Made by a program: the position numbers and the translations under genes
Assembly (NCBI RefSeq): GCF_013122565.1
Contig: NZ_CP053258.1
Reading direction: 5' to 3' (one strand)
Length of the DNA stretch: 64,000 nt
Origin: Escherichia coli
GTDB taxonomy: Bacteria > Pseudomonadota > Gammaproteobacteria > Enterobacterales > Enterobacteriaceae
Notes under the pieces: generated by a model
The model's input: only the letters and a program-made list of their open reading frames with translations
The model's database searches: none
What the model was told of the DNA's origin: nothing
In this document: one piece after another, positions 62,687 to 63,433 of the stretch
How the letters are laid out: the number at the start of each line of letters is the position of its first letter
How positions within the stretch are numbered: the stretch's first letter is position 1

Positions 62687-63433
62687 ATGCATTATGCCGT
62701 TGTCGCCATGCTTGAAATGCTTTGCTGTATCCACGCTTACCGTACCGGACAAGAGCGATATTGGTTTTTTATCATCTTCTGTTTTCCAGTGATTGGCTGC
62801 GTAGCGTATTTTGTCATGGTGATGCTGCCAGAAACGGGCGCTGACCGTCACGGGCGTACCTTTCTGATGCGCCTGCAGAACAAACTCAACCCTGAGCGCC
62901 ACCTGCGCAAATTAACCGAAGAACTGGCGATTGCCGAGACGAATCAAAACCATTATGCGTTGGCTAATGAACTGGCGCGTCTGGGGCGTTATCACGAAGC
63001 CGTTCCCCATTATCAGCAGGCGTTAAGCGGGATATTCGCCCATGAAGCGGCAATGATGCTAAGCCTGGCGCAGGCACAGTTTGCTATTCAGGAGTTTGCC
63101 GCCTGTCAGCAGACGCTGGAAGATGTGATGCGTTATAACCCTGATTTTCAGTCGGCAGACGGGCATTTGTTATTTGCCAGAACGTTAGCCGCACAAGAAA
63201 AATACGCTGATGCGGAAAGTGAGTTTGAAGTGTTGGTTTCTTATTACCCCGGCCCGCAGGCGCGTATTTACTATGCGGAAATGCTGGCGAAAATGAGTCG
63301 GTTACGTGAAGCCAACGAGCAGTATGTTGCTGTAGTTGATACGGCTAAACGCTCAAGACCTCATTATAGAAAACACCACCGGGAATGGATTAAGACCGCC
63401 AATGAACGGTTGAAGCAGAGTGTGGTGCAATGA
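62687..63433 (+). CDS. Hypothetical protein: N-terminal two-helix membrane segment resembling a PLD-nuclease N-terminal (PLDc_N) domain, followed by a helical TPR-like soluble domain (248 aa)
   Basis: N-terminus YWFFIIFCFPVIGCVAYFVMV is hydrophobic; remainder is Ala/Leu/Gln-rich helical repeats; codon usage like neighbouring genes; I do not recall an annotated gene between livF and ugpB in K-12. Confidence 0.45.
   Translation: MHYAVVAMLEMLCCIHAYRTGQERYWFFIIFCFPVIGCVAYFVMVMLPETGADRHGRTFLMRLQNKLNPERHLRKLTEELAIAETNQNHYALANELARLGRYHEAVPHYQQALSGIFAHEAAMMLSLAQAQFAIQEFAACQQTLEDVMRYNPDFQSADGHLLFARTLAAQEKYADAESEFEVLVSYYPGPQARIYYAEMLAKMSRLREANEQYVAVVDTAKRSRPHYRKHHREWIKTANERLKQSVVQ

Follow-up and report, generated by a model that had tools for sequence, protein, structure and literature searches.

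LapB (YciM) of the enteric bacteria is a small inner-membrane protein with an N-terminal anchor and cytoplasmic tetratricopeptide repeats (TPRs), and functions as an adaptor. Its anchor is a single transmembrane helix, a rubredoxin-type zinc domain forms its C-terminus, and it is near-essential and universal in enterics. The cardiolipin synthase ClsA begins with a hairpin of two transmembrane helices, the second of which carries a conserved PxxG motif (P48, G51) in its middle (PMC11698083). In normal cells the ClsA linker past this hairpin, with a net charge of +3, keeps the globular catalytic domain cytoplasmic, and positive charges within 30 residues past the second transmembrane helix block translocation; the domain flips to the periplasm when two Glu residues are added past helix 2, upon depletion of phosphatidylethanolamine or upon osmotic down-shock, and this flipping needs the native hairpin (PMC11698083). 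In this paper, we describe a gene whose product joins a hairpin of the ClsA type (PLDc_N, Pfam PF13396) to a TPR domain. The gene lies between livF and ugpB in a stretch of 64,000 nucleotides of an Escherichia coli genome (NCBI RefSeq assembly GCF_013122565.1, contig NZ_CP053258.1), referred to below as the window. An original prediction, made from the letters of this DNA, had described the open reading frame (ORF) as encoding a PLDc_N-like membrane anchor followed by a TPR-like helical domain. We have found that the gene is genuine and belongs to a compact family that is widespread in the Proteobacteria, in which a PLDc_N hairpin is followed by four TPRs in a protein of ~245-250 aa. Its product is most likely a membrane-tethered TPR adaptor, which probably faces the cytoplasm.

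A genuine gene of a widespread family

The ORF is a genuine gene, more than a chance ORF. It starts with ATG and runs from 62687 to 63433 on the + strand (248 codons and a stop), the ORF listing of the window agreeing exactly with the original prediction, and the four peptides quoted there (RYWFFIIFCFPVIGCVAYFVMVMLPE, YHEAVPHYQQALS, KYADAESEFEVLVSYYP and LREANEQYVAVVD) are all found within its translation. It is flanked by livF, the stop of which is at 62568, and ugpB, the ATG of which is at 63793, all three being on the + strand; with 747 of the 1,224 bp it fills most of the gap, as had been claimed. In the family alignment the start codon coincides with the common N-terminus, M1 being found in 89% of 138 diverse members. 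Pairwise Nei-Gojobori comparisons with the alleles of O157:H7, Escherichia sp. E1V33, MOD1-EC7003 and E. whittamii gave ratios of nonsynonymous to synonymous substitution (dN/dS) of 0.07-0.11, which points to purifying selection on the protein. Moreover, an uninterrupted frame of 248 codons is kept by the copies in the window, O157:H7, E. whittamii, Escherichia sp. and C. freundii.

The gene is already annotated by the RefSeq Prokaryotic Genome Annotation Pipeline (PGAP), which names its product 'tetratricopeptide repeat protein'; the O157:H7 copy is WP_000558842.1, and a protein identical to that of the window is held at NCBI as WP_171460221.1/QJU26548.1. The suggestion that it might be an overlooked gene therefore falls, because it is a known annotated one. 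Neither locus tag of the gene is mentioned in the paper text searched, which yielded no expression or phenotype data for it, and the supplementary tables of enterohaemorrhagic E. coli (EHEC) transcriptome and translatome studies contain no entry for it; these tables are partly incomplete, so that expression is not refuted by them.

Homologues are numerous. An indexed search recovered 41 homologous clusters with full-length members of 243-258 aa, the identities being 94% in E. fergusonii, 43% in Pseudomonas and ~33-37% in marine gammaproteobacteria, with Citrobacter in between. A profile search over 1.84 billion representatives (50%-identity clusters) with a cut-off of E <= 1e-30 returned at least 681 cluster representatives from across the Proteobacteria; among the best 150 of these 681 matches, nearly all are end-to-end alignments of ~245-250 aa, and conservation over the full length extends to members of 25-30% identity. 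The species-representative genomes that encode a member include those of Escherichia, Citrobacter, the Pseudomonas alcaligenes and mendocina groups, Lysobacterales (Luteimonas, Pseudoxanthomonas, Rhodanobacter), Bradyrhizobium/Rhodopseudomonas and other Alphaproteobacteria, and the members, where they have any name, are called 'hypothetical' or 'tetratricopeptide repeat protein'. We rejected an anti-phage defence or prophage gene as a candidate identity, since no PADLOC or PHROG profile matched the protein at E <= 0.1 and the flanks are the core liv and ugp operons.

The hairpin, the TPR domain and their likely topology

The hydropathy of the N-terminus peaks at residues 1-21 and 24-49, that is, two hydrophobic helices are present: helix 1 (2-20) and helix 2 (25-51), which are connected by the loop R19-Y25, with a break of helix 2 at P34 (33/34 in the AlphaFold2 model). 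When scored against PF13396, the protein reaches 16.3 bits (E = 0.0099, residues 26-43 aligned), below the gathering threshold of 23.3, whereas 86 of the 138 diverse relatives match this model at E <= 0.01, the lowest E-value being 4.7e-7; matches were also obtained for 10 of 32 close relatives. The predicted PLDc_N-like N-terminus is thus borne out at the level of the family but not by the score of the present protein, whose homology to PLDc_N is a transitive one, by way of the family alignment. Conservation in the entire protein is highest at H16 (98%), W26 (99%), P34 (93%), G37 (99%), Y41 (99%) and P48 (97%), as counted over the 138 members, and the positions in helix 2 include the pattern W26-x7-P34-x2-G37-x3-Y41, conserved at 93-99%, which is that of PLDc_N. 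In the literature, PLDc_N/PF13396 was found only in passing mention, in a paper on the SHOCT domain.

The protein is nevertheless not an enzyme of the phospholipase D (PLD) class, as it has no HKD catalytic domains: the Pfam scan gave no PLDc/PF00614-type match in it at E <= 10, and the cardiolipin synthase model TIGR04265 matches weakly, over residues 24-57 only (11.4 bits versus a cut-off of 290). We have therefore rejected its identification as a PLD-type cardiolipin synthase or PLD nuclease; judged from its sequence, the protein has the anchor of the cardiolipin synthases and not their chemistry. Since conservation is strongest in the hairpin and not on the TPR surface, it is probable that the hairpin does more than anchor the protein passively; it may, for instance, contact lipids or a membrane partner.

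The claim of a TPR-like helical domain held up well. In the Pfam scan both TPR_19 (38.5 bits, cut-off 25) and TPR_2 (29.4 bits, cut-off 27) exceed their thresholds, and TPR_19 matches all 138 diverse relatives. The AlphaFold2 model computed from the family alignment is all-helical, with a mean predicted local distance difference test score (pLDDT) of 88 and a predicted TM-score (pTM) of 0.69, and shows a right-handed array of antiparallel helix pairs (86-112, 121-150, 157-186 and 191-222), as in a TPR solenoid. The array is closed by a basic capping helix (225-247), in which the family motif P-x-x-Y-R ... W234 is found. The top structural matches of the model, i.e. MamA, OGT, CDC16 and designed TPRs, are all generic to TPRs, and the matches of a sequence search of the PDB are equally generic. 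Within the TPRs, conservation among the 138 diverse members falls mainly on Ala, Leu and Gly with a structural role.

We consider it moderately probable that this is a functional accessory gene standing on its own, and that it encodes a small protein of the inner membrane, in which a PLDc_N hairpin and a positively charged linker are followed by a TPR adaptor facing the cytoplasm. The two-helix hairpin (1-48, with the PxxG kink in helix 2) would insert into the cytoplasmic membrane; through the net-positive linker (49-85) the TPR domain would stay on the side of the cytoplasm, as the catalytic domain of ClsA does through its linker; and the four-repeat TPR solenoid (86-248) would serve as a membrane-tethered scaffold or adaptor for protein-protein interactions, in a LapB-like manner. 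A cytoplasmic TPR domain is favoured by the charge of the linker, which is ClsA-like: residues 48-77 contain seven K/R versus three D/E, and in the family the mean number of K/R is 6.7 and the mean net charge +3.3.

Several observations weigh against this topology. Net positive charge (+1.7) is also found in the loop that joins the helices, helix 1 of the E. coli protein is weakly hydrophobic (Kyte-Doolittle 1.03) and contains E10, and two acidic residues, E49 and D53, are no more than seven residues from helix 2, at the position where added acidic residues flipped the ClsA domain to the periplasm (PMC11698083). As to the adaptor role, there are no strongly conserved polar residues on the TPR surface across the wide family, so that no binding site or partner can be named.

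Some of the same features would suit the opposite topology, an N-out/C-out hairpin with a periplasmic TPR domain taking part in envelope biogenesis or quality control, like YfgM, CpoB/YbgF, NlpI or BamD. The only short loop (18-25) contains about two K/R and by the classical positive-inside rule, which takes no account of long domains, should be cytoplasmic, the acidic E49 and D53 stand near helix 2, where extra acidic residues flip ClsA, and the best NCBIfam match of the protein, a weak one, is that of the periplasmic tol-pal protein YbgF (TIGR02795, 31.2 bits). However, seven K/R follow helix 2 within 30 residues, in line with the family mean, and charge of this kind blocks the translocation of LepB and ClsA; the YbgF score is far under its cut-off of 90.1 bits; the structural matches are generic to all TPRs; and the gene is not linked to envelope genes. 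We therefore regard a periplasmic TPR domain as possible but unlikely. Membership in CpoB/YbgF itself was rejected, given that score and given that no tol-pal genes lie nearby, and so was HemY (TIGR00540, 15.9 bits versus a cut-off of 142).

The dimorphic livF-ugpB gap and the history of the gene

The livF-ugpB gap is dimorphic in E. coli. A megablast comparison of the region covered 5,426 complete E. coli genomes: both flanks, livF and ugpB, were found in 5,425 of them, the gene in 658 (~12%, or about one in eight, O157:H7 included) and the 1,041-bp segment that makes up the long allele in 659, which confirms that the gene is strain-variable. In alignment and blastn with a K-12-type strain, homology between the two alleles stops just past the livF stop codon and restarts at window position 63610; in place of the long segment the short allele has ~210 unrelated bp with copies of the repetitive extragenic palindrome/bacterial interspersed mosaic element (REP/BIME), and no remnant of the gene was detected there by blastn. 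In K-12 MG1655 the gap is 398 bp long and holds no annotated gene, in keeping with the original prediction, which had placed no annotated K-12 gene there. Being confined to the long allele and absent from K-12, the gene has been missed by the K-12-centred functional literature. The REP/BIME copies of the K-12-type spacer are located at L002 1672-1880, and related REP copies of 76-89% identity occur elsewhere in the window at 19989-20115, 7153-7239 and 44848-44891.

The sequence upstream of ugpB is common to both alleles, being 98.4% identical between them over 191 bp by blastn. A Pho box of ugpB had been placed downstream of the ORF, and this claim could be followed only loosely: a Pho-box-like site at 63657-63674 (TTGTCATCTTTCTGACAC) in this common region matches at 14 of 18 positions by eye, but no site in the window has three or fewer mismatches to the consensus CTGTCATAWAWCTGTCAY.

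The same slot is occupied by the gene in other species as well, in the same orientation in E. albertii, E. whittamii, Escherichia sp. E1V33 and MOD1-EC7003, and also in C. freundii (75% aa identity) and in Citrobacter sp. NCU1 and a Pseudocitrobacter metagenome-assembled genome (67-68% aa identity). No mobility genes are present at the locus, with neither integrase nor transposase among its ORFs, no direct repeats at the segment junctions are obvious by eye, and the GC content of the gene (49.9%) is like that of the window (50.3%). Because of the shared slot, the lack of mobility genes and the similar GC content, loss or replacement is the simpler reading, and the K-12 state probably reflects such an event in most E. 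coli, this being likelier than an insertion. The gene would have been at the livF-ugpB site before Escherichia and Citrobacter split, and a spacer containing REP/BIME would have taken its place in most E. coli, K-12 included. The insertion mentioned in the original prediction thus probably has the direction of change reversed.

The picture of vertical descent is not a clean one. The GC content at third codon positions (GC3) is 0.53 in the TPR gene (62687-63433) and 0.68-0.69 in livG/livF (61086-62568), which would fit either low expression or a different evolutionary history; dS versus Citrobacter is saturated for the TPR gene, while that of livF is 0.63-0.86; the gene is patchily distributed in the Enterobacteriaceae; and no homologue from Salmonella, Klebsiella or Enterobacter surfaced in the cluster or species-representative searches. 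In C. freundii CP055551.1 (L005 6850-8324) four extra ORFs are found between the TPR gene and ugpB, encoding proteins of 93 aa and 135 aa, a PhdYeFM antitoxin and a Fic/Doc-family protein, from which the gap appears to be a recurrent site of gene gain and loss.

These points could instead be explained if the gene were a strain-specific insertion that arrived by horizontal transfer at a recombination hot spot and not an ancestral gene lost in K-12-type strains. Such an origin would account for its presence in so few E. coli genomes, its low GC3 in comparison with livF, the saturated synonymous divergence from the Citrobacter copies where that of livF is not, and the fact that its nearest relatives beyond Escherichia/Citrobacter are those of Pseudomonas at 43% identity, and it would agree with the gain of a Phd/Doc-type pair and two other ORFs in the C. 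freundii gap. It does not readily explain the identical position and orientation in several Escherichia species, Citrobacter and Pseudocitrobacter, the absence of an integrase, a transposase or obvious junction repeats, the overall GC content, or a short allele that contains REP/BIME and no gene remnant. An acquired insertion is less likely than the loss of a resident gene, and we hold it to be improbable.

Possible function, gene neighbourhood and candidate transcription signals

Under a further reading, the PLDc_N hairpin would be a lipid-responsive module, and the protein a stand-alone sensor or adaptor of membrane composition, the side or the availability of its TPR domain varying with the lipid state. 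Through its hairpin, ClsA can change sides of the membrane if the level of phosphatidylethanolamine drops or the cells undergo osmotic down-shock (PMC11698083), and this idea would explain why conservation in the protein peaks at the hairpin residues (H16, W26, PxxG, Y41 and P48). We regard such a sensor as a quite doubtful proposition and keep to the membrane-tethered adaptor with a cytoplasmic TPR domain.

The coordinates of the gene and of the features around it are listed in Table 1. The two hairpins past the livF stop, the second of which was flagged as terminator-like, fold with -26.4 kcal/mol (z = -5.9), and the first is positionally conserved in C. freundii. They are likely the terminator(s) of the liv operon, in which case the ORF would be a separate transcription unit; the gene would then be transcribed alone, from the livF terminator hairpins to the two terminator-like hairpins upstream of the ugpB promoter. 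The stem sequences of the first of the latter (CAGCAA/TTGCTG) are conserved in the Citrobacter locus L011. A weak σ70-like pair, TTGTTT-17 nt-TAAAAA, is seen at 62623-62651 between the livF hairpins and the ORF; it was unflagged by a consensus scan, and its part TTGTTTCA is conserved in C. freundii. Rfam contains no RNA family that matches in 62400-63900 at E <= 1.

Table 1. Position, strand and basis of the features of the livF-ugpB gap (window coordinates)
Feature	Position	Strand	Basis
Coding sequence of the PLDc_N-TPR protein	62687..63433	+	ORF call, homologues, RefSeq, dN/dS
Codons 1-48, PLDc_N-type two-helix membrane hairpin	62687..62830	+	Hydropathy, AlphaFold2 helices, conservation, PF13396
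Codons 49-85, basic two-helix linker, lowest model confidence	62831..62941	+	Sequence, family charge, pLDDT 57-73
Codons 86-248, four TPR helix pairs and basic C-terminal capping helix	62942..63430	+	
Two hairpins past the livF stop: 13-bp stem (62575-62607), then 5-bp stem (62609-62622) followed by UUGUUU	62575..62622	+	
Shine-Dalgarno-like GGAAAGG, 9 nt before the ATG	62671..62677	+	Read from sequence
Hairpin with 9-bp outer stem followed by AUUUUUG, candidate terminator of the gene	63504..63541	+	RNA fold -17.4 kcal/mol, z = -3.2
Second terminator-like hairpin, 10 pairs followed by UCUUUUCAGU, last feature of the variable segment	63563..63597	+	z = -2.7
Variable segment, long allele, 1,041 bp	62569..63609	.	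Alignment and blastn versus K-12-type strain
ugpB upstream region, common to both alleles, right boundary, outside the gene	63610..63792	+	Alignment, blastn, Pho-box scan

Two side observations concern neighbouring reading frames. For livF, the ORF list gives a GTG start at 61843 (61843-62568, 241 aa), whereas LivF in RefSeq has 237 aa and starts at the ATG at 61855 (MEKVML...), one base past the livG stop codon. Downstream, a 50-aa ORF at 63430-63582 (+), which overlaps the stop of the TPR gene (ATGA), was rejected as a gene: its frame is not conserved in Citrobacter, it has no family, PADLOC or PHROG matches, and the two terminator-like hairpins explain the stretch better. One RefSeq genome annotates a 'hypothetical protein' in the region of this ORF.

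The gene neighbourhood was analysed at 80 loci from species-representative genomes by clustering the ORFs within 3.5 kb. The loci of the enterobacteria, Pseudomonas, Lysobacterales and Bradyrhizobium have no neighbour in common; conservation of the neighbourhood is confined to genus-level clades. The enterics have liv/ugp, one Pseudomonas group has genes of the LOG family and of the MscS type, and elsewhere each clade has different genes of its own. There is thus no operon partner, and an inference of function from the gene neighbourhood was abandoned, as no neighbour is kept across clades. The protein might still be tied to its neighbours in the enterics, e.g. by regulating or helping to assemble the ATP-binding cassette (ABC) transporters Liv or Ugp, for in Escherichia and Citrobacter its gene adjoins both operons on the same strand. 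We judge this very unlikely, because outside the enterics the gene is never beside liv or ugp genes and its contexts vary by clade, because both transporters operate without it in K-12 and in 88% of E. coli, and because hairpins part it from both operons.

Finally, that the ORF is a decaying or non-functional remnant, as a truncated E. albertii copy, partial copies in Shigella and the many E. coli that do without the gene might suggest, is hardly credible in view of the low dN/dS, the frames intact at 248 codons in the genomes named above and a full-length family kept down to 25-30% identity. The E. albertii copy in question, that of the type strain NBRC 107761 (L019 6001-6609), has a frame that stops after 202 codons and gives a single tblastn segment spanning only 185 residues; this copy is probably a pseudogene.

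Comparison with known systems

The gene is annotated in RefSeq, and its product is of a known kind, the membrane-anchored TPR adaptors. What it adds is a PLDc_N hairpin in a non-enzymatic protein, which offers a simple second test case for the role of this hairpin; otherwise nothing here challenges current understanding, the gene being an ordinary accessory gene for a membrane protein. With MamA and the generic bacterial TPR scaffolds it shares only the repeat fold, at 14-19% identity, and these have no membrane hairpin. In YfgM and CpoB (YbgF) the anchors differ, being a single signal-anchor or a signal peptide, and their periplasmic location is not the one favoured here. LapB, with its N-terminal membrane anchor and TPRs, is the closest analogue for a possible mode of action. 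However, the present protein has neither the one-helix anchor nor the rubredoxin-type zinc domain of LapB, and its gene is accessory whereas LapB is near-essential in enterics; membership in LapB/YciM was rejected, since the C-terminus is a basic helix without a cysteine cluster and hence without a Cys4 site, and the LapB model is not among the NCBIfam matches of the protein. The likeness to ClsA lies in the anchor: in both proteins a hairpin of two hydrophobic helices with a short basic loop stands at the extreme N-terminus, helix 2 contains PxxG, within a W-x7-P-x2-G-x3-Y pattern that for ClsA we take to be W40-x7-P48-x2-G51-x3-Y55 (W40 and Y55 being assumed here), and a net-positive linker follows (+3 in ClsA, +4 in the present protein). 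They differ in that the hairpin is joined to a PLD/HKD catalytic domain in ClsA and to a TPR solenoid here, in that the inter-helix loop of the present protein is shorter, and in the invariant His16 in helix 1 of its family.

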